Under the pieces are notes generated by a model. That model was not told the DNA's origin. It worked only from the letters and a program-made list of their open reading frames with translations, and made no database searches. A stretch of 63,972 bases of DNA, filler included, from Collodictyon triciliatum (Eukaryota): assembly GCA_043381765.1 (NCBI GenBank). It is 4 parts of 4 records of this genome, joined end to end, with 100 filler letters (N's around TTAATTAATTAA, not from the genome) between each part and the next. Parts side by side here need not be neighbours in the genome. Positions count along the whole stretch, not along the records: positions 48,163 to 63,972 come from JBHJMP010001632.1; 3 more parts are not named here. The stretch is one strand, 5' to 3'. The position numbers and the translations under genes are program-made. Shown piece by piece: positions 15,984 to 63,972 of the stretch. Positions within the stretch are counted from its first letter, which is position 1. Each line of letters begins with the position of its first letter.

Positions 15984-16083
15984 NNNNNNNNNNNNNNNNN
16001 NNNNNNNNNNNNNNNNNNNNNNNNNNNTTAATTAATTAANNNNNNNNNNNNNNNNNNNNNNNNNNNNNNNNNNNNNNNNNNNN
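15984..16083. other. Artificial contig linker N44-TTAATTAATTAA-N44; identical linkers at 32020-32119 and 48063-48162
   Basis: The same 12-mer, with stop codons in all six frames, is embedded in Ns at 16028, 32064 and 48107. Confidence 0.95.
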
Positions 16084-28837: not shown

Positions 28838-29335
28838 ACGAGCTGGCAAAGTCTCCCAACAATGCACACTTTGCACCAACCGTGATGAACCCATGGAGCA
28901 CACGTTTGTACAATGTCCCTTCGCTCAAAACCTGCGCGAAACAGCCGGTGAGATTCTTCGACTGACACTCAAGATGCTGCGGCTGTTGTCCAATCCAGGC
29001 GATATTTAGGCCTCTGCAACAGCTGCGTCCAGATGCAAAAACATTCTGGGCAGTGACGCGAGGCCATTTGGTATGGACTATGTGGACAGCGCGCATATAC
29101 TCACGCAAAGCAAGACTCAACAACCAGCCACCCATTCCTGATAATAAGCTGGACGACATCGTACAAATCTCTTTCCTCAACAGCTTTCTTCGCCACCTGC
29201 ACGTTCTCTACTACTCAGACCCTGTGAGAAGAAACATATGAAAGGAGGCTGAGAAAGATATTAAACCTCGCCTTGTCTCTCTCATGCAAGCACAAGACCC
29301 AGGCTACAGGCCAGTCTGCATAATCTAATCTGATA
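28838..29335 (+). mobile_element. Degenerate truncated fragment of the same non-LTR retrotransposon as at 48.2-49.4 kb
   Basis: Colinear nucleotide similarity to ~48803-49305, e.g. shared CAAAACCTGCGCGAAACAGCCGGTGAGATTCTTC and GATGCAAAAACATTCTGGGCAGTGACGCGAGGCCATTTG. It carries small indels and a TGG>TGA stop near 29239. Confidence 0.9.
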
Positions 29336-31860: not shown

Positions 31861-32349
31861 AATACGTTTTCTATCACACATTATGTCACCACATCTCGAT
31901 GCATTCCAGAGTCATCCATCCCTTTTTTTTTTTTTTTTTTTTAACCCCCCCCCCCCCCCCCCCCCCCTTTTTTTTTATTTTATTTTTTTCTCTTTTTTTC
32001 TTGTTTTCTTTTTTTTTTTNNNNNNNNNNNNNNNNNNNNNNNNNNNNNNNNNNNNNNNNNNNNTTAATTAATTAANNNNNNNNNNNNNNNNNNNNNNNNN
32101 NNNNNNNNNNNNNNNNNNNAAAGAAAAAAGAAAAGAAAAAAGAAAAGAAAAAAGAAAAGAAAAAAGAAAAGAAAAAAGAAAAGAAAAAAGAAAAGAAAAA
32201 AGAAAAGAAAAGAAAAAAAGAAAAGAAAAAAGAAAAGAAAAAAGAAAAGAAAGGGAAAAGAATAATGTTCTTGATCGAATAAGAAGCAGATGCATCATGC
32301 TTCCGCATGTCAGAGCTTTTTGTAAGAAATATGTGCATAGTGTTTCGTG

Positions 32350-48062: not shown

Positions 48063-48162
48063 NNNNNNNNNNNNNNNNNNNNNNNNNNNNNNNNNNNNNN
48101 NNNNNNTTAATTAATTAANNNNNNNNNNNNNNNNNNNNNNNNNNNNNNNNNNNNNNNNNNNN

Positions 48163-49440
48163 TTCAAGGCACAGCTCTGTGAGAGCAGAATCCCATCACC
48201 ACCACCAAACACGCCCGAGCCGCTACTAGCGCGGTGGAAGGTTCTGTATGAAAACTGTGAAATGTGCGAGTCTACCCAACTACTTGATGGTACAGGCCAA
48301 CTTCGCTGGGATAGAGCAAAAGGCTTCTGTATCATCAAGTCGATAGAAGGAAACAGCTCCTTCATCCTGCAACAAGTCGCATTCCAAAAGGATGGAAGCT
48401 TCGCACCGTCGAAAAATGCAACGATATTTCACTCGTCGAATGCAACCCCAACCACAGCCGTCCTGAATAACAAAGGAAAGTGGCGCTCGCGCAGAACAAT
48501 CTCATACGGCATCCAGTCGCCATTCTTCTTCCGCTTCAAGAACGAACGCTCGTCTAACGGTGCGCAGTCTATGCTGTTCACGATGGCTATGACCTACTCC
48601 AAATTCTTTCGATACAAAATATCGCCGCCTACACCTTACAAAAAGTCAAAACATCAACGATGGGGAGAAACACTGGGCATCACCCACACCCCGCTCACCG
48701 CGAGCTGGAGACAAGCACGAAACCCGCTAGTCATCCCAAATCACCGGCTCTCTAATGCTTAATATCACCAATAGGGAGCTATGGATAGGCACACGCGCGG
48801 CAAAAGCTGGCAAAGTCTCCCAAAAATGCACACTTTGCAGCAACGGTGATGAGTCTACTGAGCACAAGTTTGTGCAATGTCCCTTCACTCAAAACCTGCG
48901 CGAAACAGCCGGTGAGATTCTTCAGCTGACACTCAAGACGGCTGCAGCTGTTGGCCTAATCCAGGCGATATTTGGGCCTCTGCAACAGCTGCGCCCAGAT
49001 GCAAAAACATTCTGGGCAGTGACGCGAGGCCATTTGCTATGGACTATGTGGGTAGCACGCATATACTCACACAAGGCAGAATTCAACAGCCAGCCACCCA
49101 TTCCTGATAATAGACTGAATGACATCATACAAATCTCTTTCCTCAATAGCTTTCTTCGCCACCTGCGCGTTCTCTATTACTCCGACCCCGTGAGAAGAGA
49201 CATGTGGAAAGAGGCTGAGAAGGACATTAAACCTCGCCCTTGTATCCCTCATGCAAGCACAAGACCCAGGCTACAGGCCAACACGCAGGATGCAATTCCT
49301 GATAATTGAATACTTCTTCGCCACCCGGCCACCAAGTAGCATCCTTGCAAACGATGACTAGCGAACCAAAGCCAACATCTTCACCATCCTGCACAAAATT
49401 TAAAGGAATAATAGAAAAGATAAAGCGAAGAGAGGGAATG
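48163..49440 (+). mobile_element. 3' part of a non-LTR retrotransposon (L1/Tx1-like ORF2 C-terminus with zf-RVT zinc finger, plus 3' UTR); frameshifted
   Basis: ORF 48755-49309 contains KCTLCSNGDESTEHKFVQCPFT (CxxC...ExxxH...C) and a LLWTMWVAR helix typical of L1-clade ORF2 C-termini. It is joined to the upstream ORF (48262-48762) by a frameshift near 48755. The 5' part is cut by the contig linker. Confidence 0.85.
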
Positions 49441-49871
49441 AAAAGTATGTCTTGCTATGGTCAAAAGACAAAATGAGACGCCGAACAAAGGGAGTGCTGA
49501 GCAGCGAAGATGAGGGTTTACGACAGACAAAGACGGTAAAGGATAAACTCCAACAAAGAGATGAGTGACCCATATCCAAGCGATCTTCTAGCGGACAGCA
49601 AAAGAACAAGATGCTACTGAATAAATAGTTACTGGACTATTTGCTCTAGCTGTCGAATCAAGGTTGGGATGACTACTTAAAATCATGTGCCGAAAAAAAT
49701 CCCTCTAAATTTATTATCAGTAGTATATTATTTAACCTATTTATCTTTTCTCGTAATCGACGAGAAACACGAGTCAACTTATTATTATACTATAGATCTT
49801 GTAATTAATGATATAGAATGTCAATTATTTTCTTTTATTCTGAGACTCATCCAGAGATATATTGGAGCATT

Positions 49872-51368
49872 CTACTTTATAATCTCTATCATTTTATCAA
49901 CATAATTCATGACTTTGGTTATGTTGTAAAAACTCCTATCTCCTTCAATTCCCATATACGGAAATTGTAGCTTTCTGGCCATCACGGCGTAACAATCAAC
50001 TATTCCAGGTGATTTAGTAGGGTCCATCGGAGAAGTGTCATGTATCTCGATGATACCTGTAGATGTCGAAAAGAGCATATTTACGAACCCTGCTCCGTGT
50101 TGTCCAATAATTATCTTAGCATTTTTGAATAACCTGATTGTGTCCTCCATCGATTCGTGTACGTACTTGATGACATCCCATTTATTGCCATATTTTTCAA
50201 TAATAGCAGATACCATTTCATCTGTATTATTTACAGGCCTCAATTGACGTCGATCAAGAACAATAATAAGATTTTTATCCATATTTGAATTGACTGAGGA
50301 GAAACTGAAGATATTGGCGCGGTGAGGTAACGAGTATTGCGTGAAATTTAATTCCTTCACACCAAAATGATGCCTCATCAGCATCATCTGAGGTAGAATG
50401 GGCTTTATGCATATCGGTAATGTTGGCAGAATTATTTCTTTGAACGATAATAAACACTCATTTTCACGAGTAAATTCTATTATGCGACTCTCAGATATCC
50501 CAAATTTATTTATTGCATACTTAGAAAACACTGTTCGTCTGTCGACCAAAACTTTAACTGATTCATCTTTCCTTATGTTTTCTGGCAATGTGAACCAGTG
50601 TAAGAGAGAATCTACCCATATATGATAGTAATTTACTTGTCCCCACTTGCTCATAGGAAGAATCACTACTCGTTCCTTGCTCATATCTGATTTGCTACTG
50701 GTAGTACACTTGTTTGAGGATACACTAACGTTAGCTTGACTATATCCCATCAGAGACAATTTATCTCGACATGTGCCAGCGAATACACTTTTCGAATCAG
50801 TAACGAAAACTTCATGATACTGGTGCAGCAAAAATTGCGGGTTGTCAGTGAGTGATACCCAGTGTTCCCCTTCATGCATGGATGAAGGAGAGAATTGCTC
50901 AAGTTTTACAAGATGCCCTGATGAATCGCGTTGAAGCAAGCCAGCTGTGGGCCATTTTTTACCTCTCATGTAAGCTTTATATAGTCCTGGGTAGAAAAAT
51001 CCTGCCCTTGGCCTTTCTTCCCAATGTTTACTCAATGTATCCTCCACGAAAAAATAATTACTTTGAAACCAATACATTTCATCATATTCTGCGAGTTTTT
51101 GTAACACGTTGTTGTGGTAATTTGGGCTATTAGCAACGTAATAATCTACGTATTCCTAAATAGTAATTTATTAAGCACAAAAGCTTATGTTGGATTAAGC
51201 TCAGGACTAATCACCAGTGATAGGGACACTATACCGATGGCAAGTGAATAAACAAACCTTAATGCTGTAGTTGTTCACATTACTTCGAAATATGATCTGT
51301 ATGAGTTCACTCGCTTCACATTTTATGTTTAAGAAGAAATAAAAGATAAATATTATCTTGATCACCAT
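49872..51368 (-). CDS. Glycosyltransferase family 61 (DUF563-type) protein with N-terminal signal/anchor; two exons (51368-51258, 51155-49872)
   Basis: NYYHIWVDSLL and IRLFKNAKIIIGQHGAGFVNMLF...IIEI are GT61 motifs. Exon 1 (MVIKIIFIFYFFLNIKC...) splices in phase 0 via GT-AG into the 411-aa ORF. Confidence 0.85.
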
Positions 51369-52019
51369 CAGAAACCTATCACATTTAAAATCATTCAATA
51401 TATTTTGCAACTTTCATAATTTGAATAGGTTATCTCTGACTTGTTTCATAAAAAATACATGGAACAGATGAGTCATGTTTGAATGCAAAAAAGGGACAGA
51501 AATCGATGGGGACCAATGGTGTTTTATGACATTAGGTACGTATTTGAGTAACAGTCCGCCACTTTGACGTCTGATTGAAGATGTTTGTGGCACTGAAAAT
51601 TCGTTTCGAAAAAAAGAAGGAACTTCAGTCTCGGGTGATTTTGAAAAAAGTATTAAAAAAATTCACCAAGATAACTGGGCGCTAAAGAACTTATGGAAAA
51701 TCCGATCTATATGAAGTAATGTAAGCAAGATATCTTCAAAATACTGAGGATGATTTTAGACATATGGACTATAGTAGACCATGTAGGAGGCAATGATGTA
51801 CTAATTGGCCCCATTTCCGCCACGTTAGGTTACAACGAGGTGATATACAGTCTTGTTCATGGTCCAACTTACATTGGCAAGGAGAACCTCCATTAGATCG
51901 CTTACGACTAACATACCGCGATCAGAAATTGCAGCCGGGATCGACCTATGCTAAAAAGGAGACTACTTTATCTGCCCCCAGGGCAAGATATGGCCTATCC
52001 TCTCTTTCACAATCCATTT

Positions 52020-52515
52020 TTCTTCCTTTCAGCTTTTTTGCAGGACCGAGGGGGGTGTTGGCTTTGGTTCGCTAGCCATCGTTTGTATGGGCGCTACTTG
52101 TCGGCGGAGAAGTAGTCGGTACTCAGGATTGCATCCCGCGGTTTGGCTTGTGGCCTGGGTGTTACAAAGGGGTGTCTGGGGGGCATGGGGGGATATTCCA
52201 AGAAGGGCAGACATGGAATAGAGGGGGGACAATTCTGTGGGGGTGTGTTTTTGTGGGGTCGAAGCTCGGCGTAGATATGGCATCTCATTCCTCTCTCACG
52301 GAAGCACTCTTCTGATGACGTCATTTTCTTCGAAAGTTGTGGGGTGTGCTCCGTTGTCCGGCGAAGCACAACCCCGGCTGCCCTGGATTGGGTATAACTG
52401 AGGGCACAGGAGGAGGGCTCAGGGAATGCGTGGTACAGGGCCGGAATCACACACACCGCGCACCCTGTGGGGTTCGAACCACGTTCGCGCAGGTCAGACG
52501 CTGTCCCATGCCAGC
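52020..52515 (-). mobile_element. Putative SINE: tRNA-like head, structured GC-rich body and 3' tail derived from the local LINE
   Basis: Minus-strand head ...CGTGGTTCGAACCCCACAGGGTGCG (B-box/T-arm-like, ~52459-52483). The tail (52160 down to ~52022) aligns with LINE 49264-49408, including CAAACGATG(G/A)CTAGCGAACCAAAGCCAACA with a single mismatch. Confidence 0.7.
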
Positions 52516-52654
52516 TGAAGAATTTACACAACTTATATTCAGTGTTTTGCCGACACGATTAAATATTACATTTATTGACCAGTACAACAATCAGGTCAAC
52601 TTCCCGCAGACAGCTAGTGTAGAAATTACACTCAAACTCGTTCCCGTAGAATAA
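52512..52654 (+). pseudogene. C-terminal remnant of a minor capsid (penton-like) protein, truncated at the SINE
   Basis: AEEFTQLIFSVLPTRLNITFIDQYNNQVNFPQTASVEITLKLVPVE* resembles the terminal strands (I.F.DQ.G..VDF....FTL) of Polinton/PLV/virophage pentons. The upstream part of ORF 52337-52654 is SINE sequence. Confidence 0.55.
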
Positions 52655-52675
52655 TTTTGTATATATTTCTCGGCA

Positions 52676-52707
52676 TTGTAAACATTTTTTAAAAATAATG
52701 TTTACAA
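52676..52707. promoter_or_regulatory. Palindromic intergenic motif, copy 1, just upstream of the fibre ATG
   Basis: TTGTAAACATT-TTTTAAAAAT-AATGTTTACAA followed by ATATATG (ATG at 52712). Confidence 0.6.
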
Positions 52708-52711
52708 ATAT

Positions 52712-54913
52712 ATGACTTCATATGAAATCGGATCATACAGTTCTAGGTACCCCTATGACTATTCATTTGTGACAGACGGGACAAACTCAGAATATACAGA
52801 CACAACAGAATCAAATTTTATTTTGCCAACTATAACGGGAGCAGACGCGGATAAATTTCTACAAGTTAACGCGCAGGCAACTGGATACGAGTACACAGCA
52901 GTCGATGCTGAGCTTCCTCCACAGGCTGGGCAAGCTGGGAAATATCTTGAAACTAATTGCACATCAGTTTTTTGGGATACAGTGAATCAAGTATCTGGTG
53001 TAACTGGTGGTGTCGCCAACCAGTATCTAACAAACAATGGTAGCACAGCAAGTTGGGGGTCTGTGAATCAAGTACCTACTATAATACCTGGAGCTACTGG
53101 AAAAAGTGGGTATGTATTATCAAACGATGGGTCAAGTGCAATCTGGACAAACGGGCCTATAGGTTTGGGTACAACTGGGCCTGCTATTCCAATTATTTGG
53201 TTTGGAAGCAATAACAACGGCTTTGCAGAGGCGTGGACGGCGAGGGGCGGGGCCACGGGTGTCTCAGCAATTACAAATGGCGCAGTATGTTGTACATTTC
53301 AATCGAGTGCCATCCGACTGCCCGGGGGCAATCCAATACGATCTAATGGAAATGCGGCGTCTAGATTTCAGTTTACCTCTGATGTACCTAATATGCAAAA
53401 TTCTGTTGCTGCCGGGACTACTGGAACCGACCGTAGTGTTAATTTGAGTTCAGCCAATTGGGCATCAACTTCACTAGACTTGGTATGCAGCAATACAAAT
53501 GATACACCAGGCGCATTAAATGCTAGTTCGATGGCAGTTGAAATAAAACAAAATCAAATTGTTCTTAGTGGAGCTGGGACAACGGCATCAACTACGTTAC
53601 CAGCTCGTCAAACAAGAATGACTATTAGTAACGTAGAAGTAGCTACATCTTTACCTTTGGCTGTAAGCAACTATATAACTGCGACAAGTACTATTATAGC
53701 CACGACTGACTTTGTGATGAATCAACCTGGAACAGAAGCCAATCAAGCTTACATGTTTCGAAATTTTGACACTTCTGACGCCAACCGAAATAAAAATAAT
53801 AGACAAGGAATATATAGTCCTGATATCGGAGCCATAGCAATTTCAACAAACTCTGTGAGCAATATATCAGGAAGTATCGCTGGTAGACCCAATGCGGTAG
53901 AGCGTTTTAGGGTCGATGATAATTATGTGACTGTGACAAATTCATTAAATATAAGTAGAACTACATGCGTTGGTGCAACTGCCCCGCATTTATCTTTTGG
54001 TGACATTACTGCGCCAGTCAGTGGAGTATGGGGTACAAATGACAGTTTATTTTTTAGTTCAAGTGGGGCACAACGTGCCAATATATCAAACACAGGTATG
54101 AGTATAACAGGCGACTTGACTGTAATTGGAACAATATCAGGGAGTATATCAGCCCCTCAAGTAGTCAAAAGAACGCACGTGATTGGAGCAACTAGCAGTA
54201 CAGCATACGTATATGATTCAGGCAATACAGGGCTAGCTACAACACTTATATCTAATTCTATTTCATCACAAAAGAATATTACACTTGGCAATATGGGTGC
54301 TGCATATGAAGGCTTTGAATTTATGTTAACAGGTGACTTAGACAGCTTTGGTGTTGCAGTGACTCTTGCGTGTACCGGTTCATTTGTAAAAGTCAGGTCA
54401 GGTGCTATTGGTATAGATGGCAGCACAGCTGCTAACCAGGTATTTACATTTTCAAGACCAATGAATGAGTTTAGAATTACAGGTGCGTTTGTTTGGAATG
54501 GTGGAACAAATCCTTACTGGATTGTTGTTGATAAGGGTGTATATAAACAGAGGGCAACAAATGATCTATTTGCAGGTGGCACATACAGTGTAAGCAGAAA
54601 CACACCGGAGGATTTGATGTTGACACGCGCGAGTGCTACAAGAATTGATTTTTTGAATCTTGTTACCAATGGAGGTAGTCAAGAAGACTATGATGGATTT
54701 AATTTTTGGCTGCCACCCTCACAAGACGTAACAAGCTCGTTGAGTTTTAAAAAAAGCACATCAGTTGGATTAATTATAAATGACGGTTCTGCAATAACTA
54801 CAATCAATGCAAATAGCACATTACAAATCCATGCAGCTAGTGCTGTTGGAAGTTGTTATATGTGTGTTTTTCGTAATAACTCTGGCTTTAGATGGTATCT
54901 GTATGCAATGTAA
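52712..54913 (+). CDS. 733-aa viral fibre/spike-like protein (G/T/S/N-rich, beta-strand repeats), intronless and intact
   Basis: N-terminal repeats LPPQAGQAGKYLETNCTSVFW / VTGGVANQYLTNNGSTASW / IPGATGKSGYVLSNDGSSAIW resemble viral tail-fibre repeats. Later segments QGIYSPDIGAIAISTN...VERFRVD and SGAQRANISNTGMSITGDLTVIGTI are also fibre-like. Confidence 0.75.
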   Translation: MTSYEIGSYSSRYPYDYSFVTDGTNSEYTDTTESNFILPTITGADADKFLQVNAQATGYEYTAVDAELPPQAGQAGKYLETNCTSVFWDTVNQVSGVTGGVANQYLTNNGSTASWGSVNQVPTIIPGATGKSGYVLSNDGSSAIWTNGPIGLGTTGPAIPIIWFGSNNNGFAEAWTARGGATGVSAITNGAVCCTFQSSAIRLPGGNPIRSNGNAASRFQFTSDVPNMQNSVAAGTTGTDRSVNLSSANWASTSLDLVCSNTNDTPGALNASSMAVEIKQNQIVLSGAGTTASTTLPARQTRMTISNVEVATSLPLAVSNYITATSTIIATTDFVMNQPGTEANQAYMFRNFDTSDANRNKNNRQGIYSPDIGAIAISTNSVSNISGSIAGRPNAVERFRVDDNYVTVTNSLNISRTTCVGATAPHLSFGDITAPVSGVWGTNDSLFFSSSGAQRANISNTGMSITGDLTVIGTISGSISAPQVVKRTHVIGATSSTAYVYDSGNTGLATTLISNSISSQKNITLGNMGAAYEGFEFMLTGDLDSFGVAVTLACTGSFVKVRSGAIGIDGSTAANQVFTFSRPMNEFRITGAFVWNGGTNPYWIVVDKGVYKQRATNDLFAGGTYSVSRNTPEDLMLTRASATRIDFLNLVTNGGSQEDYDGFNFWLPPSQDVTSSLSFKKSTSVGLIINDGSAITTINANSTLQIHAASAVGSCYMCVFRNNSGFRWYLYAM

Positions 54914-54938
54914 TAAATTTATTAATTACTTTCAATTG

Positions 54939-54971
54939 TTGTAAACGTTTTTTTAAAAAAAATGTTTACAA
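54939..54971. promoter_or_regulatory. Palindromic intergenic motif, copy 2, just upstream of the small TM gene
   Basis: TTGTAAACGTTTTTTT-AAAAAAAATGTTTACAA followed by GGATATATG (ATG at 54978); near-identical to copy 1. Confidence 0.6.
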
Positions 54972-54977
54972 GGATAT

Positions 54978-55140
54978 ATGGACCCGGTGTTGATTTTTTT
55001 GTTGATATAACTTGTGTTTGATTGCTGAGAGTGCGATGAAGTATTATTTAAAAAAAATTCGCAAGTCTCAGCGCTGTAATAGCGTAATGCAAACGCGTGA
55101 ACCAAGTCCTGATATTGAGCTTGAAAAAATAAATATTTAA
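54978..55140 (+). pseudogene. Small membrane-anchored viral protein, frameshifted
   Basis: MDPVLIFLLI then, after a frame change, YNLCLIAESAMKYYLKKIRKSQRCNSVMQTREPSPDIELEKINI*: a hydrophobic N-terminus followed by a basic patch. It sits directly behind the conserved intergenic motif. Confidence 0.45.
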
Positions 55141-55146
55141 GAATGC

Positions 55147-55443
55147 ATGGACTGGCACAAAGAGTTAAAAATTAATAAAGTAACATACAGAGTCAAAAAA
55201 GCAAACGACAAAAAACACAAATATGTCGTGTATATACTTGACGGAGGCATGGAACGGTCCCCGGTACGATTCGGGGCGCTTGGCATAGAGCATTACAAAG
55301 TTAAGTTTTAACAGTACTCGCAGTCAGACCATAAGGATAAAAAGCGCCTGGACAATTTCCTCTCTCGATTTGGTTCTCAGTATGAAAACATTAAGAACGA
55401 CCCCAGCAGCGCGTTGTTTTGGAATTGGAATTACTTGTGGTAA
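55147..55443 (+). pseudogene. Tlr6F-like protein (conserved in Polinton-like viruses, virophages and Tetrahymena Tlr elements) with an internal stop
   Basis: MDWHKELKINKVTYRVKKANDKKHKYVVYILDGGMERSPVRFGALGIEHYKVKF*QYSQSDHKDKKRLDNFLSRFGSQYENIKNDPSSALFWNWNYLW*. It shows the KY...V.FGA.G...HKD..R...F..R...SA.FW...LW pattern, with an in-frame TAA at 55309-55311. Confidence 0.8.
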
Positions 55444-55531
55444 TTTTTTTGGAAAATGATTCTGTCGAAAAAATACAAGTGCGTTTGAATTCCAGATTTT
55501 TTAATTTGCCAGAGAAGGAATGGAATCCCCC

Positions 55532-56019
55532 AGCAATTGCCAATTTTTGAAGTAAATCACAATAAAATTGAGGACTTGAAGTTATGTATTTATTTAACCT
55601 TGGTGGAGGCAGCTGTGCACATGTATAAAATGTATAAGTATGATTCCAACAATTTTACTAATCTACAAGAATGTAATTTATGAGTCTGTGAGGTGTCATA
55701 TATTACATGTCCGGATGAGTTTCAATATTGGTATTCATCTAGAACCAATGAAATTATTGATAGACTCAAATCAGTATCATATGGTAACATAGACGAATAT
55801 ATTTGGAGGAATTGGCAAGGTAGTCATGGAGAAATGTATAGATTTTTAAAAAATAATGAACATCCGGTAATTGGAACATATGAAAATAATTTGATTGATA
55901 AAGACATTATTAAACGTATTCTTAATAGTCTTGATTCTGTTTTATATGAGTTAGAAGTTGAAGACATTACCGTTGCAAGATTTAAACACATAATGTGGGA
56001 AGATTTATTAAAAGACTAA
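55532..56019 (+). pseudogene. Unknown viral-type ORF interrupted by a stop (the 108-aa ORF 55693-56019 is its distal part)
   Basis: Frame QQLPIFEVNHNKIEDLKLCIYLTLVEAAVHMYK...ECNL*VCEVSYITCPDEF... runs through a single TGA (~55681) into the listed ORF. It is intronless and AT-rich, with no family recognised. Confidence 0.45.
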
Positions 56020-56603
56020 CTCTTACCCTGGCGCGCCAAACATTACAATAAACTATTTAATTCACTTGTATAATTTACCCAGCCCCAGACCTTGCCGCAG
56101 CTTTTTGCTCAAAACCCAGCCCCCCGCCAGATAACTCTCCACAAAATTTGCCCTCGGAGGATTTCGGAAATTTCCGGAAAAATCCAGAGCCTCGGTAGAA
56201 GCCTGCTGGGGTAGCCGGGTGGGTAAGTCAGTAGCCTGGCCCCGCACTAAAGATATAAGAAAATTAGGAGGGAGAATTTCTCAATTTCGACGCCCTTTAA
56301 GCAAGGATTTCCGGAAATTTCGATTTATGAAAAAAAGAGGGTGGTCCCCACCACCCTCTTTTTTTTAATTTTCTGGAAAATTCCGGAAAAATATTAATAA
56401 TCCTCTTACTCCTTTCAATCTTATATTTCATATTCTATATTGGTAATTATTTTGAAAGGATGTGAGGGTTTGTGGATGTTCATTTCCATCTAGCTGTGAC
56501 GATGAAACTTTTGGAGGGTGGGAATTACGGAAATCGGAAATTTTGTTTTTAAACTAATGTAGGGGGGTCCAAAAAGTACCCCTCACACCACCACACCCTC
56601 TCT
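56020..56603. repeat. Putative right terminal (TIR-like) region of the viral element
   Basis: Non-coding and GC-richer than the adjacent ORFs. It has repeated GGAAA(T/A)TTCCGGAAA-like motifs (~56166, 56307, 56375), a perfect 16-bp stem AAAAAAAGAGGGTGGT-CCCC-ACCACCCTCTTTTTTT (56330-56365), and ends in CTCTCT (56598-56603). Confidence 0.5.
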
Positions 56604-59600
56604 TTTTCCGCAAACCTACAGACGAACACAAATGGCGAACCGGGACAAATAAATGAGAGTGGGGGAGCTCGTTCAGTTATTGTGAACCCTTGCAACTGAA
56701 GTTCTACCCAATACAAACGGCGACACCCAAAAGAATAAGTTACGGAGATGTTTCATATATAAAAGTGTGTGGGGAAGCCTGGAGGGTTGCCAATATCCTC
56801 GCCAGGGCTTGAGAAAAGCCTCGCCAACCCCCTGGATATACTTAAAGTATGTTCAAAATCGCAGGTTCAGAAGAATAGTGAAGGCGAATATATATATTTA
56901 TATTAATATATGTATTCGGTTTCATCGTTTTCGTTTTGATAAATGGTTCAATCTAACAACTTCGTGGACTAGCTGAAAAATCGCATAATTTTATTCAATC
57001 TATCATATTAAGCATTAATTATTCATCTTGAATTAGTAAATGTTCGAACTAAAGTCATGGGCAAAACTCAGATACAGTTGAAAAGGAGAGGGACAAAAGA
57101 CAATATCCGTGGGAAAGGGAACTGTTTCGATCTACTACTTGGAGGAGGTGGGAGCGGTGGTGGATCGGCGGCTCCTAGTTTTCCCGATGGTCTGAAGTAA
57201 AGGTCTAAGAACGTACGGTGGGGGTGTTGGGTTGTGTTGTGTGTGGAAGTATGTCTTTGTCTAGTCATTCATGACCAAAAAAATAAATAAAATAATAATA
57301 TTCGTTGTAAATTTTTGTAATCGAGAGTAATATATCCTTTTTTGCGGTAAGGAGGCTTAATCTTATTAGAAAATATTGCCTATTTAACATATAAAATATA
57401 GCATGCATTAAGTCGACAAGTTTATAATTAAAAATATTTCCGTTGTAAAACTATTAATAATAATGTAGAACAAAAATCTATAAAATCGAGAATTATCATC
57501 AGAGTCTGGCCGTGCTAGTTAATTATTATTCAGTTGATAGATTTAATATAGTATGAAAAATGAAATCAATATTTAATATTTATAATCGTCTCAGATATAT
57601 ATTTTCTAATGAAGTCAAATAAAGATGAATGGACTGCCTAATGCATCTGCATCGCTATGTCGTTTATTTTTCAATAATCGTATTACGTATCGCCTTTTGA
57701 ATACTAAATATACAGAAAAATATTTAAATTACTTATCTACTAGAGAAGCTTAGTTATCTGCATACTCTTGGTATCCATATTTTAAATTCCGTTTTAATTA
57801 AATCAATAGATACACAATTGCATCAAATGTGAATTTTAAAAAACCAACTAACCAACACAAAAAACCATTATATTATCCAAATCGAAAAACACATACCATA
57901 TCCCCGCTAAAAACCAGTTTGCCGCTGAATGATACACCACCCCTCCCCTTGACCGACCTGCAATCTTTTGTCCACAGCTTCACACCCATACTCCTCACCT
58001 TACTAGACCTTGTTCGTTTCTCCAAGTGAAATGAATTGTAGGTTTATCGCTCAATAAATAAATCTATATATTAGTTAATCGTTGTTATATCATCTAAATT
58101 AGTTCAATTTTCTCCCTTGCTTATATAGATGTCGATTTATCAAATCCAACAAACCCACCCTTCCAATTCCAAGTCAACCAGAGGTAATGAAAAGGTATTT
58201 GTTATATGTATTATTACGTACCCCCGACTAATCGAGGATTTGGTGGACGGTTCACGCCCTTTTTATTTTGTTTTACGATTACCATCATTCAAATATATTA
58301 AGAAAATCATTTTTATGCATACAAATTATATTTTCGTGTATTTATTGGTTTATATAATGATTAATTATTTTATCAATACATACAGTATGGCTTCTATGAT
58401 TGTTCATATTAGTGATTCTATCTTATCAATAAATACTTGATATTGTTCGGTTTATTCCTATCTGGTCAAAATATGGCCGATTACCAGTATTAATGCATAT
58501 ACAATTTTATTGATAATCTACATTATTCATTTTCTATCAAATATTCAAATACAAGGATTCAATTCGTCTGCATTGATAGAAGTGTAAACTAATTGAATAG
58601 CTAAACTTTCAGTTTTATAATATCTCTTGAAATGATTGTGATTGCAAATTGAATAATATCAATACCTTTTTTATTCTTGTATCATAATGAGTTTAGCTTC
58701 TTTTAAACACTGATTTTATCTTGGGTTCCAAAGGAATTTAAAAATCACATGGTTTAGAGCTCAAAGAAATATAAGATTTGCGTAAAACATATCGCTATTA
58801 ATAGTCAAAAGAATAAAGTCAAATTTTTGTCGATATAACTAAGCAGTGCTTTGGATTTGATTTAATGAATAATATTAACATGGAAATTGACATACGATTG
58901 GATTTTTAAGATAGTTGGTTGATTAGAACCCACGATTAAGAGCTATCTTATAGAGAACGAAATAATCACGATGAAACAGATGAATACATGCAAATCTATA
59001 GTGAAAATTATTGACAATCACTGAACCTCTTAGAGATGATACCCAGCTCTCACAAAACATCATATTTTGGTACTTCAATCAGTTGTTAATGTAACTTTAC
59101 CGAATATTAGGATGTCACTCATCGCTTGGCCATTTCTATACACATATGGTTGTACTTCACGAGTAAGCATAGTTCTAAAACAATTAATAATCCAGCTAAC
59201 TGAATGAAGATTTCATATACTCAATTTTAGACTTTTAAATCCAGAACAAATTTTATCGGAAGCTATTTTCAAGAGCGATATTTTTTTCTCATATAAATAT
59301 TTTTTGATATTGTCAAGAAAACAAGGTTTTTTAATAATTGATTCAATATAAATTATCTAATAATATGGCTGTTTTATCCTCTGGTTGTTTGATTAATTAC
59401 TGTGTAATTATTTAACACTAAGAGGATTCGAATAAATGGTTCTTATCCCAATATTTTTTCATTTTGATAATGAATAACAATATACGAATGCAACAATAAT
59501 GAACATTTTTTTATGATTTGGAACTGACATTTATTATTTTAGGAATGACTAAAGTTCTAGCCGGCACGATGATTTTAAGCACATAGTTCCATTCTGTTTT

Positions 59601-60358
59601 ATTTTTTTTAGTCATTAATCAACTCATATGAATCACAAACTCATGATTCTCTTATCTATCAAAATTCATTTGTATTTGCAATCATACGTTTTAGCTTATC
59701 GGTGAATATCTCAAGATGCTGAATAATAGATTATTTACCTGGTTTATTTGAAATTGAAAGATGAAAGAGGATTAAAATATTGAATCAAGATATATGAGTG
59801 TGCGGAAAGACAAGTGGTTTACGGATAAGAGATTGATTTGTTTGAAGGAAAGTTTAAAATAAAAATAAGACAGTTAATTTAAAAAAATTATAAAATCAAA
59901 TAATGAAAATAAATTTGTACACTTAAAAAATTCATTCATTTTTTCCTATGCAATATGTTTGTGTTGATTTATTTTTATAAATAATGCATTTCTTTCATCG
60001 TATCAACTTTATATCATATGAAAAATCAATAATATTTGATAAATAGATACAAAATTAAGCTTCAATTTAAGAATTACTTTATTTAATACTGAATATTCTT
60101 GAAATCATACTTGCTGAATATTCCTATGTTTGGTGAATAAAATATCAGCAGAACTGATGATATTCAACTTATAATGAGAAATTGGTTGCAATAGGATACA
60201 AATGCACTCACCAGACAAAAAAAGAACCAATTCCCGACGCGATAATTTCTTCGAATCGAGAAGGTCATCTCCCAATAATCCTGCAACGTGTGTTTCATAA
60301 TTCAATCTAATAAATACATTTGATTAATTAGTCTTAATTTAAATCTATAACCAGAAAT

Positions 60359-63300
60359 ATGATGCTTTTGACTGCCTTTGTTGCCATCTTTTTCTTTGTT
60401 TCATCGGCATCCTCAATTCATCCACGTCAAAGGTATATTTTGATTTATAAATATTTATAAAATACACTTTCGACTCAAATAAGGAAAACAGATGCCAGTA
60501 TTCAAGAGATGAGTTGCTTTCCATGAAAGTCGAAGATGCGTTCCAAATTCTGTTGAGCCACTACGATGAGACATGTCCTTTGTTAAAAGAGAGTGAAGAT
60601 AACTTTTCAGGGATGATGAATGGCTGGAAAGACGGAGAATACTCGCTAGAAAATGGACATGGTGCTGAATGGAATTATGGAAGAAAATCAACAACTAGTA
60701 AGGTCGATTTCTACAAAGAAATTCATTCGCCAATACGAAGTAGAAGCAGGGAACGGGGATTAGAGAACGAAGAGAACCGAAATGTGGCCGATGGAAATCC
60801 TGGGACCCAATACGAACTGCTCGTTCAACTTTACGCTTTACTTGGAGGTGATGGTTGGTATTCGAGCTATGGATGGAATGATTTGTACACTCCAATTTGT
60901 GGGTGGTATGGGATATACTGCTACCAGTGCCCTTATGAAATGCACAGGGTTATTCTTCAATACATAAATCATTCATTTTGTTCCGTCTGAATCGAATAAA
61001 GAACAAATTCATCTTGATCTAACATGTATATGCCATTAGGATAACACATGCCTCATCTATGCAATAAGCCTGTCAGGAAATAATCTTAACGGTGACATTG
61101 AAGCTGCCTCTGCAATTTTCGAGAAGTTCCAATTGTTGGATTCCTTGGACATGAGCTACAACTCCATTTACGGAAATCTTCCAGACTTTAATCTCCCAAG
61201 CATTACGTATTTGAATCTCTATGTGAATCAAATTACAGGAACAATTCCAGACTTTCAAGGAATGCCGAATATTGAATTTCTTGATATTGATGGGAATGGA
61301 TTGGAAGGAACAATACCGGATTTTTCTGGAATACAGTCGCTGAAAGCATTATACATTGGTGGAAGTGAAAAAATTACAGGTACAAAGTAATTTCCTTTAA
61401 GATTTATTCTGAATTCTAATGATTTTTCCATTTCAGGAACTCTTCCTGACTTCTCAGCGTTGCCAAATGTTCACTATCTTTGGATTTATATCTGCAAAGT
61501 TCATGGTTTGATTTTCATCCAATTAAATATGATGGCATACAAGTTGTCGTATTATCACCTATATAATATAGAGGTGATAATACCACACAAGTACTAATTT
61601 TTTTATATTAATTACAGGCATGGTTCCAAACTTCAGTGGAATACCAAATGTTTTAGAGATATATCTTAACAGCAATCAATTGGATGGTAAGTTTTCATTA
61701 TTATTTTCATGTATAATATATAAAAGAATCTAACTTTACATTACAGGAACCGTTCCAAACTTTAATGGAATTCCGAATGTTGAAATAATTTCTCTTGACA
61801 ACAACCATATGACTGGTTAGTTTTATTACTATTTCATATATCATTGAAGCAAAAAAAATTAACTTTACATTGCAGGAACGGTCCCAAACTTCAGTAGAAT
61901 TTCGAATGTTTTAGAGATATATCTTTTCAGCAATCAATTGACTGGCAAGCTTTAATTATAATTTCATGTGTTATTGATAAAAACTAACTTTACATTACAG
62001 GAACGGTCCCAAACTTCAGTAGAATACCGAATATTTTAGAGATATATATTCACAGCAATCAATTGACTGGCAAGCTTTAATTATAATTTCATGTGTTATT
62101 GATAAAAACTAACTTTATATTACAGGAACGATTCCAAACTTCAGTGGAATATCGAAGGTCGAAATAATATCTCTTTCCGACAACCAATTGATTGGTAATT
62201 TTTATTATTTTCGTGTGTTAATGATAAAAAAAAACTAACTTTATAATACAGGAACGATTTCAAACTTCAGTGGAATTCCAAATGTTTTAGAGATATATCT
62301 TTCCAGCAACCAGTTGATTGGTAAGTTTTATTATTTTTCATGTTTTATTGATAAAAAAACTAACTTTATATTACAGGAACGATTCCAAACTTCAGTGGAA
62401 TTCCAAATGTTTTAGAGATATATCTTTCCAGCAACCAGTTGATTGGTAGGTTTTATTATTTTTCATGTGTTATTGATAAAAAACTAACTTTATACAACAG
62501 GAACAGTTCCAAACTTCAGTGGAATTCCAAATGTTTTAGTAATTTATCTTTCCAGCAACCCATTGAATGGTATGTTTTAATTATTCTTTCATGTATTATT
62601 GATACGCTAACTTCATATTGCAGGCACGGTCCCAAACTTCAGTGGAATTCCAAATGTTTTAAGAATTCACCTTGATAGAAACAGACTGGATGGTGATTTC
62701 TATTCATTTTTCTTTTTTTGATTTTCATATTTACATTAATTCAATGAGTAATTTTAGGCAAAATCCCAAACTTTTCAAATATGCGTAAACTGGAGATCAT
62801 TTCTGTCTCTGATAATCAGTTGGAGAGAGAAGTTCCAAATTTTAGAGATTGCGAAAACATCAAGGGAATAGTATTGTTCCGAAATAAGTTGTCGGGCACA
62901 TTGCCAATGTTTAATCTTAATAGTCTTACTAGGCTGGATGTGAGCGAAAACCAAATCAGTGGCTCTATTCCAGAAAATTGGATATTGCCTTCAATTAAAT
63001 ACATCGACTTGTCTTGGAACAAAATGAACGGCACAGTCCCAACCTATTTTCAGGAATTACCAGAGCTGCAGTCACTCGTTTTATCACACAATAAATTCTC
63101 TGGAAGCATGCCTGATTCATTCTGGAATCTGCCGAATCTAGTCACCATTGATTTGAGAAACAACTCGTTTTCAGGAGACGTTGGTATTTTTATTGTTCCA
63201 GATACAGACAAAGTCGATTATTTTTATGAAAATCTTTTGCTTGATGATAACCAATTGAATGGAGAACTGAATTGGAGACTTTTTCACTATGTTAATAACA

Positions 63301-63972
63301 TAAAAACATTAAGTCTTATGAGCAACAACATCACCAGGCTTGATGACCTTACAAATCTTCTTACATGGACTTCACTAGACTTGTCTGGAAATCCTATTGT
63401 TGGAAGCATACCTGAATCTTACGATTCATTCACCAAGCTTGAGTATTTAGGATTCAAAAATACGAGCATGAGTCATGGTTCTTCATATTTTCTTCCATCC
63501 TTTATAAATATCACTGACTCCTACAATTTCGAAAGGACGACAGATAGATATTCATGCCCATCAGTTGCCCCTCTCTCAGGGTTGGTCGAGATGGAAGTGG
63601 ACATTGACCCAAAGTACCACGAATATGGGCTGTGCAAATGCTTACCTGGTTACTTTGGATTTGGAAACCATTGTGTGAAGTGCCCAAGAGAATGTGAGTG
63701 TAGTGACGGTGTTTCCTTGGAAAAATGCTATTTCACTCCAGACGTTCTTAAGATAGTCCAGATAGTTCCGTGCATGAATCCAGACGTGTGCAAATTTTAC
63801 ATTCCAGAGTCTATGTCAGAGAGAATGCTCATAAGCAATAAAACTTATGATTTCCCGTGTGAAAAAGGATACAAAGGAAGAAGTTGCTCTTTTTGTGAGG
63901 ATGGATACTTATTTGACAGCGGTGAATGCAGGGAATGCTCATCCGATTACTCTGCTCTCAAGGTTATTGTTT
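60359..63972 (+). CDS. Secreted/receptor-like LRR protein (signal peptide, LRRNT cap, many plant-type LRRs, Cys-rich region, probable TM beginning at the window edge); 3'-partial
   Basis: MMLLTAFVAIFFFVSSASS signal peptide and cap LLVQLYALLGGDGW...WNDLYTPICGWYGIYC. LRRs include LDMSYNSIYGNLPDF and LNLYVNQITGTIPDF. Ten 69-nt single-LRR exons precede a long exon from 62758 that ends CEKGYKGRSCSFCEDGYYLFDSGECRECSSDYSALKVIV. Confidence 0.9.
61618..62692 (+). repeat. Tandem array of ~125-130 bp exon+intron units, each encoding one 23-aa LRR
   Basis: Exons 61618-61686, 61747-61815, 61876-61944, 62001-62069, 62126-62194, 62252-62320, 62377-62445, 62501-62569 and 62624-62692, all 69 nt and phase 1-1. 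The introns are homologous to each other, ending ...CTAACTTTA(C/T)ATTACAG. Confidence 0.92.

Follow-up and report, generated by a model that had tools for sequence, protein, structure and literature searches.

Short retroposons that borrow the tail of a LINE reveal what the reverse transcriptase of that LINE recognises. A segment of about 500 bp in the genome of the freshwater protist Collodictyon triciliatum raises the question of whether it is such an element and, if so, where its 5' part came from and which LINE moved it. It lies in a stretch of 64 kb (63,972 nucleotides, spacers included), referred to here as the window. On a sequence-only reading the segment had been taken for a tRNA-derived SINE, accompanied in the same contig by its partner LINE and abutting a truncated viral penton gene.

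The window is made up of four separate contigs joined by spacers at 15984-16083, 32020-32119 and 48063-48162, each consisting of 44 N, then TTAATTAATTAA, then a further 44 N, so that features on different pieces are not linked. Both the element and the LINE fragment closest to it, termed LINE B, fall within the last piece, 48163-63972.

Boundaries and parts of the element

The segment proved to be GC-rich and non-coding, on the minus strand, as first described, and the features previously read from it were all recovered to within 2-3 nt. Its ends are now placed at 52517-52017 in place of 52515-52020, giving a length of 501 nt. The GC content of the element is 57%, in flanks of 37-40%. Its parts are as follows.

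52017-52517, minus strand: the whole element, a retroposon copy with head, body, LINE-derived tail and short A-run, delimited by environmental contigs and by a jump in GC content at both edges
52164-52517, minus strand: head and body, 354 nt, 58% GC and C-rich, from local comparison with LINE B and the window
52500-52515, minus strand: D-arm-like hairpin GCTG-GCATGGGA-CAGC, with the A-box-like TGGCATGGGA (52513-52504) inside it, read from the sequence
52470-52480, minus strand: perfect B-box match GGTTCGAACCC, within a T-arm-like 4-bp stem with an 8-nt loop (52482-52467)
52341-52375, minus strand: strong hairpin of 13 bp and one bulge, from folding against shuffles; a perfect 13 bp in three other samples
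52020-52163, minus strand: LINE-derived tail, comprising the last 15 or so ORF2 codons, the stop and the 3' UTR, from alignment with LINE B
52056-52085, minus strand: conserved 30-nt block, from the same alignment, and part of an exact 34-mer (52052-52085) seen in the public RNA run X2
52017-52021, minus strand: short A-run (five A) at the 3' end, read from the sequence; other copies have T and at least 10-11 A there

There is one copy of the element within the 64-kb window, and a comparison of head and body with the rest of the window gave no match. Exact scans with a 24-mer from the head and a 25-mer from the tail returned 0 matches in the metagenome-contig or viral-contig collections. The copy is not framed by a recognisable target-site duplication, the 63 nt of 5' flank and the 72 nt on the 3' side having no word of at least 6 nt in common. 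No long open frame is present in the left flank, 51156-52016.

A tail derived from a LINE

Two LINE fragments in the window bear on the origin of the tail.

48163-49411, plus strand: LINE B, an L1-like LINE of which the contig start leaves only the 3' part; it comprises the ORF2 C-terminus with zf-RVT and the 3' UTR, then an A/G-rich run
49261-49411, plus strand: stretch of LINE B homologous to the tail of the element, from alignment
28841-29313, plus strand: LINE A, on another contig and without the tail, 90% identical to LINE B 48805-49280

The last 140 nt or so of the segment had been aligned with the ORF2 end and 3' UTR of this LINE, and this homology is secure. The tail (52163-52020) is 73.9% identical to 49261-49411 over 153 columns (E 1.8e-19), with a Smith-Waterman score of 109, where 200 shuffles averaged 20.4 and reached at most 28. 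The homologous stretch spans the ORF2 stop of LINE B at 49307-49309, which closes a frame containing zf-RVT. Element and LINE end at a common point (49411 = 52020), past which the two are no more alike than expected by chance (matched by 137 of 1000 shuffles). The head and body compared with 1.1 kb of LINE B, its 3' part lacking 5' UTR and ORF1, gave a best local score of 13, the shuffle maximum being 18.

Within the tail, the block 52085-52056 is identical to 49348-49377 at 29 of 30 positions, compared with about 68% identity outside it. A stretch as well conserved as this arose in 341 of 20000 permutations of the alignment columns, and the environmental contigs also point to the block as the best conserved part of the tail, in agreement with what had been proposed for it. 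The 30-34-nt block is thus a candidate site of recognition for an L1-like LINE, in a protist that has been little studied. A small hairpin in the block, TGGCT...AGCCA, was considered as a covarying structure and rejected, since the only base that differs from LINE B breaks one of its pairs.

The homology of LINE A to LINE B stops exactly at 29313/49280, about 130 nt short of the LINE end, and is followed by unrelated DNA; LINE A is, as judged from its sequence, 3'-truncated or rearranged. The window contains no full-length LINE by the measure of Pfam reverse transcriptase and endonuclease families, which were matched by none of the 84 frames scanned (of 101 of at least 90 aa).

The unit in environmental samples

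Public sequencing runs holding 11-18% of the sampled words of 51600-52900 accounted for 20 of the 24 listed (16 studies, 12 RNA). Four runs were examined, X1 and X6 (DNA) and X2 and X3 (RNA), all from freshwater or subsurface samples, at a likeness of at least 90%. The element is detectable in freshwater DNA and RNA libraries of several studies, and could be used as a sensitive marker of the organism or its relatives.

Contigs from these runs cover 52020-52517 at 92-99% identity, and the match ends at 52517 and at 52020. The junction between body and tail (52163/52164) is crossed both by X2-14, an RNA contig of 431 nt spanning 52084-52517, and by X6-26, a DNA contig of 298 nt spanning 52131-52431. 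Head, body and tail thus form one unit that is present outside the window locus, RNA libraries included. The proposal of a non-autonomous element with a LINE-derived 3' end is upheld by these contigs, in which body and tail are one piece. An ordinary 5'-truncated LINE copy of about 145 nt, lying by accident beside unrelated GC-rich DNA, would account for the lack of a second copy of the body in the window, but in contigs from other samples body and tail are contiguous while the flanks are unlike this locus, and this explanation is barely credible.

At the 5' edge, the DNA contig X1-4 reads GACTACAACGTCTGCCC past 52517, where the window has AAGAATTT, which is penton sequence. The RNA contig X3-20 continues with GACT and then Illumina adapter, and X2-14 stops 2 nt past 52517. 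The window copy is therefore without at least 4 nt of 5' end that are present in other copies. That the RNA contigs from two studies end 2-4 nt past 52517, while the DNA contig continues, is a weak hint that the 5' end of an RNA lies near this point. Presence in RNA libraries is no proof of transcription, because DNA carry-over is possible. X1-4 runs 17 nt upstream of 52517 as a single path, which fits one dominant context in sample X1, for example one source gene.

At the 3' edge, the contigs of X1 and X6 have T followed by 10-11 A before 52020, compared with five A in the window, and those of X6 then enter other DNA. The unit ends like a retroposed LINE tail. In X6-23, only 52020-52052 and A10 are found, set in unrelated DNA and flanked on either side by CATTAAG, the classic picture of a truncated insertion that has duplicated its target site, and on the evidence of this insertion the tail type of the element is mobile. 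The element is found in at least two contexts, which have the 3' end at 52020 and the poly(A) in common. The 34-mer 52052-52085 recurs exactly, with 0 other letters, in the RNA contig X2-13, preceded by 119 nt of unrelated purine-rich sequence; X2-13 is a third context for the 34-nt block, and represents either another element or a truncated insertion in a transcript.

In none of the contigs of the four runs do a foreign flank, the body and the tail occur together. The left flank (51600-51995) is covered by no contig of the four runs, which says nothing on copy number or on the presence of the organism. Contig depths for the body were 10-17 in X1 and 12 in X6, with tail pieces reaching 47, depth here not being equivalent to copy number. 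Where covered, the window copy differs from all runs by seven substitutions (52137, 52148, 52195, 52213, 52299, 52315 and 52433) and by indels near 52239 and 52370, amounting to about 2% total divergence. Divergence of this kind would be expected of an older copy derived from a common source.

The environmental contigs also bear on the LINE responsible. Several tail subtypes co-occur in them, including one like LINE B (X1-2) and an intermediate form (X6-24). LINE B does lie in the same contig as the element, as had been noted, if only the last piece of the window (48163-63972) is meant, but the claim that it is the partner fares less well. The tails are only 74% identical and the environmental tail resembling LINE B is distinct from that of the element, which makes LINE B a relative of the partner and not demonstrably the partner itself; its designation as the direct partner is probably wrong. 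A search among longer proteins with the last 46 codons of the element frame found no ORF2 ending in the tail peptide of the element.

A further explanation is that the element is a one-off chimeric retrocopy of the U6/L1 kind, made when the reverse transcriptase switched from LINE RNA to an abundant cellular non-coding RNA, in which case the contigs covering the head would derive from the cellular gene itself. The arrangement of cellular RNA, LINE 3' end and poly(A) fits, such products of L1 have been described in the available accounts (PMC4476161, PMC11838501), and the two contigs that bear foreign 5' letters, X1-4 and X3-20, extend over head or body and not tail. Against this, one RNA run and one DNA run of other studies contain the fused form too, in versions that are 2-3% different (X2-14 and X6-26), and the body matches no RNA family in Rfam, so that the 5' part does not correspond to a known small RNA. 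A one-off chimera is accordingly considered very improbable.

Origin of the head

The B-box or T-arm-like and acceptor-like motifs reported at the start of the segment are indeed there, the former as GTGGTTCGAACCCCAC at 52482-52467 and the latter as AGGGTGCG at 52466-52459 (minus strand). Their interpretation as the remains of a tRNA does not follow. ARAGORN found 0 tRNA genes over the window, and Rfam searches at E<=10 gave no match to tRNA, 5S, 7SL or snRNA, either on 1.5 kb or on the 131-nt head. The head has no acceptor pairing, and it has no anticodon arm, since only 17 nt lie between the D-arm-like and T-arm-like stems. Its folding energy is no better than that of shuffled sequences (z 0.70), and the cloverleaf is not the minimum-energy fold. 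The head is thus homologous to none of tRNA, 7SL RNA or 5S rRNA as far as ARAGORN and Rfam can tell, as a SINE in the strict sense would be, and tRNA descent is unsupported.

A Pol III-transcribed SINE with a tRNA-derived head draws on the 4-bp D-arm-like and 4-bp T-arm-like stems and on the perfection of the B-box. This is the single match in the window, where 0.13 were expected, but at least one such match was present in 13 of 100 shuffles. The A-box-like TGGCATGGGA is a weak match, agreeing at about five specified positions of the consensus. With an RNA start at the GACT of X3-20, the A-box-like motif would lie 9 nt and the B-box 42 nt from the start, distances that would suit a Pol III promoter of the internal type. 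Runs of four T are absent from the element, but this is uninformative, TTTT being absent from 1332 of 2000 shuffles as well. Judging by these motifs, transcription by Pol III is possible, while a Pol III SINE with a head of tRNA origin is quite unlikely.

A bolder form of the same idea would make the element the founding member of a Pol III, tRNA-related SINE family in a deep-branching freshwater protist, with the 34-nt block as a sequence-specific signal for an L1-like, poly(A)-type LINE. This is distinctly improbable. The L1-type poly(A) LINE clade is usually regarded as ‘relaxed’ in its tail requirement. A Pol III SINE with block-specific recognition would, if confirmed, represent a ‘stringent’ requirement in this ‘relaxed’ clade. 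A full-text literature search retrieved no publication dealing with SINEs or retrotransposons from the protist group of the host.

Folding and coding capacity

Two strong hairpins had been reported in the element, of which one stands up to comparison with shuffled sequence. The hairpin at 52375-52341 folds with -22.7 kcal/mol (z -4.9), and none of 500 shuffles folds as well. Without the letter at 52370, which is left out in X2, X3 and X6, it becomes a perfect 13-bp stem of -26.5 kcal/mol. The ACAGGG...CCCTGT hairpin exists, but is no better than chance (z -0.14, with 209 of 500 shuffles folding as well). The fold of the whole element is likewise no better than that of shuffles (z 0.10).

A frame of 140 codons runs through the window copy, in frame with the LINE ORF2 end. 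It is broken in X2-14 by 7 substitutions and five single-base gaps, leaving longest frames of 115 and 64 codons, and a search for protein relatives of the frame found none. The element is on these two grounds non-coding. In X1-4, a stop codon lies one codon upstream of 52517 in the same frame. An open frame of 154 codons, 52094-52558 on the minus strand, passes through the element in frame with the LINE ORF2 end. Other copies do not conserve it, and it most likely results from a composition that is C-rich and poor in stops.

The junction within the ORF2 end, in frame with ORF2 in the window copy, is one of the features that would be expected if the element were an internally deleted LINE of the RIME/ingi or NARTc/L1Tc type, its head and body being the LINE 5' UTR, internal promoter included, joined by a deletion to the last 145 nt or so, with transcription as in the LINE and mobilisation in trans. 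Head and body are C-rich on the sense strand and have more C than G there, as does the LINE (C 0.35 versus 0.29), and the RNA has an apparent defined 5' end. RIME and NARTc are, according to the portion of PMC2996970 that treats them, similar to their autonomous partners over the whole length, whereas head and body here are without similarity to 1.1 kb of LINE B, a stretch that does not include a 5' UTR. Moreover, X2-14 is unbroken through the body and the junction, where a co-expressed full-length LINE with the same head should break the contig; this continuity is weak evidence, as contigs drop rare variants. Descent from a LINE by internal deletion is considered unlikely, though it stays a live alternative.

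Nature of the element and comparison with known systems

The interpretation preferred here, and given an even chance of being right, is that 52517-52017 (minus strand) is a dead, nearly full-length, non-coding and poly(A)-ending non-autonomous retroposon of about 0.5 kb with a LINE-derived tail. The element is classed as a LINE-tailed non-autonomous retroposon, and a SINE in the wide sense: its 3' end and that of a LINE in the same genome are homologous, it is short (501 nt) and without a conserved ORF, and it has a poly(A) 3' end and copies in two or more different places.

How such a retroposon might have arisen and moved can be set out as follows. Its first 355 nt or so, head and body, show no relation to the LINE sequence present in the window. 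An L1-like LINE lineage of the same genome, of the poly(A) type, has supplied the last 145 nt or so from its ORF2 end and 3' UTR. The element RNA would start about 4 nt upstream of the 5' edge of the window copy, which would put the B-box and the weak A-box-like motif at plausible distances from the start. The LINE reverse transcriptase would then take this RNA in trans, accepting it through what is the LINE's own 3' end, namely the conserved 30-34-nt block and the poly(A), and the RNA would be copied into the genome by target-primed reverse transcription. The window copy has landed at, or been joined to, a broken penton gene of a Polinton-like virus.

The closest described design is the EhSINE1/EhLINE1 pair of Entamoeba histolytica. 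EhSINE1 is described in the relevant part of PMC2996970 as 500-600 bp long, transcribed, polyadenylated, ORF-less and not tRNA-derived, and as having in common with its LINE only some 70-100 bp at the 3' end. The present element is of similar length, is seen in RNA libraries, ends in poly(A) and likewise has no conserved ORF. In it too, only the 3' end (about 145 nt) is common to the LINE and the remainder is without similarity, as far as LINE sequence is present, the comparison being with EhSINE1 as portrayed in that account (PMC2996970). Neither is a SINE by the strict definition as worded there (PMC2996970), since homology to tRNA or 7SL is lacking in both. The two differ in that EhSINE1 is reported in the same account to be abundant, with target-site duplications and internal repeats (PMC2996970), whereas the window copy has no duplication. 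The LINE-shared part of the element reaches into the coding end of ORF2, unlike that of EhSINE1 as outlined there. The host is a free-living freshwater protist, unrelated to Entamoeba.

The element also resembles UnaSINE1/UnaL2 of the eel, in being a short non-autonomous element with the conserved 3' tail of a LINE (PMC1636434, in the section available); a 3' tail of the UnaL2 type is stated there to be required for retrotransposition (PMC1636434). As in that pair, so far as the source presents it, conservation is concentrated in one short block and is far lower around it. UnaSINE1 has, in the same description, a tRNA-derived Pol III head, whereas a tRNA head is not confirmed for the element, and the UnaL2 tail is depicted with short terminal repeats and a defined stem-loop, whereas the LINE concerned here is L1-like with poly(A).

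Like RIME/ingi and NARTc/L1Tc of trypanosomes, as summarised in part of PMC2996970, the element is a short (about 0.26-0.5 kb) non-autonomous retroposon of a protist and LINE-dependent. RIME and NARTc are deletion derivatives with whole-length similarity in that summary (PMC2996970), whereas the element is similar in the tail only, when compared with the 3' part of the LINE. With the U6/L1 chimeras, as characterised in the passages available from PMC4476161 and PMC11838501, it has in common a foreign 5' RNA that is continued by the 3' end of a 5'-truncated LINE and by poly(A). Those products are portrayed there as one-off template switches from a known small RNA, whereas the fused form of the element recurs and its 5' part belongs to no Rfam family. 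The general picture of SINE and LINE biology is unchanged by the element.

The penton remnant and neighbouring genes

The 5' end of the element adjoins a viral gene fragment.

52514-52654, plus strand: remnant of a penton gene of Polinton-like-virus or virophage type, consisting of the last 46 codons and the stop, from C-terminus matches and the fold of relatives

The frame 52514-52651 is 78-85% identical to the C-termini of three proteins of 291-293 aa. An AF2 model of one penton relative, P0003 (12-sequence alignment, pLDDT 80.5), matches the mavirus penton 6g41 (E 9.4e-12) and, lower down, the adenovirus penton base and the Sputnik capsid entry 3j26 (chain N); further matches are to minor capsid proteins of virophages and Polinton-like viruses, including that of mavirus, and to Tetraselmis viridis virus S1 proteins. 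On this model, the full-length relatives of the remnant are predicted to have the single jelly-roll penton fold. The first 245 codons of the penton are nowhere in the window, tblastn giving no other match with E <0.5.

Penton and element are joined at 52517/52518, with a 2-nt overlap, TG, common to both parents; on the plus strand the joint reads CCAGCTG|AAGAATTT. The related virus contig X1-5 continues upstream at the point where the window switches to the element. That the element abuts the penton gene is therefore plain, as had been claimed, but the suggestion that it caused the truncation is unproven, as there is no target-site duplication. The combination of a missing duplication with 2 nt of microhomology indicates either insertion with deletion of target sequence or a repair-type joint. 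An insertion with a large target deletion, a repair-type joint and an assembly join through a repeat would all fit. Element insertion is a possible cause of the truncation. The element marks the edge of the viral remnant, and the joint provides one case of a retroelement at the edge of a decayed endogenous virus.

An intron-less ORF of 733 aa (52712-54913, plus strand) follows directly after the penton remnant. A stretch of 45 nt between the penton stop and this ORF (52663-52707) is replaced by GTAG in the related virus of X1 and X6. Neither Pfam nor PHROG has a family that matches the ORF. All the look-alikes proposed by the language model are viral, a T4 gp9/10-like annotation being present on 12% of one cluster, and the start of the ORF is matched by environmental contigs at about 91-97% identity. 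This ORF probably codes for a fibre or spike of the same Polinton-like virus.

In the interval from LINE B to the element lies an intron-less gene for a 427-aa protein of glycosyltransferase family 61 (49872-51155, minus strand; Pfam E 9.3e-18). It looks eukaryotic, a tentative lead from its mostly eukaryotic look-alikes. A search of IMG/VR found no related viral loci for either the 733-aa ORF or the glycosyltransferase gene.

Most of the window looks like intron-bearing host genes, with kinesin, LRR and Sel1 exons. Inside a leucine-rich-repeat gene region at 61594-62724 there is a tandem array of 9 copies of a unit of about 125 nt, which are 67-100% identical to the reference copy.
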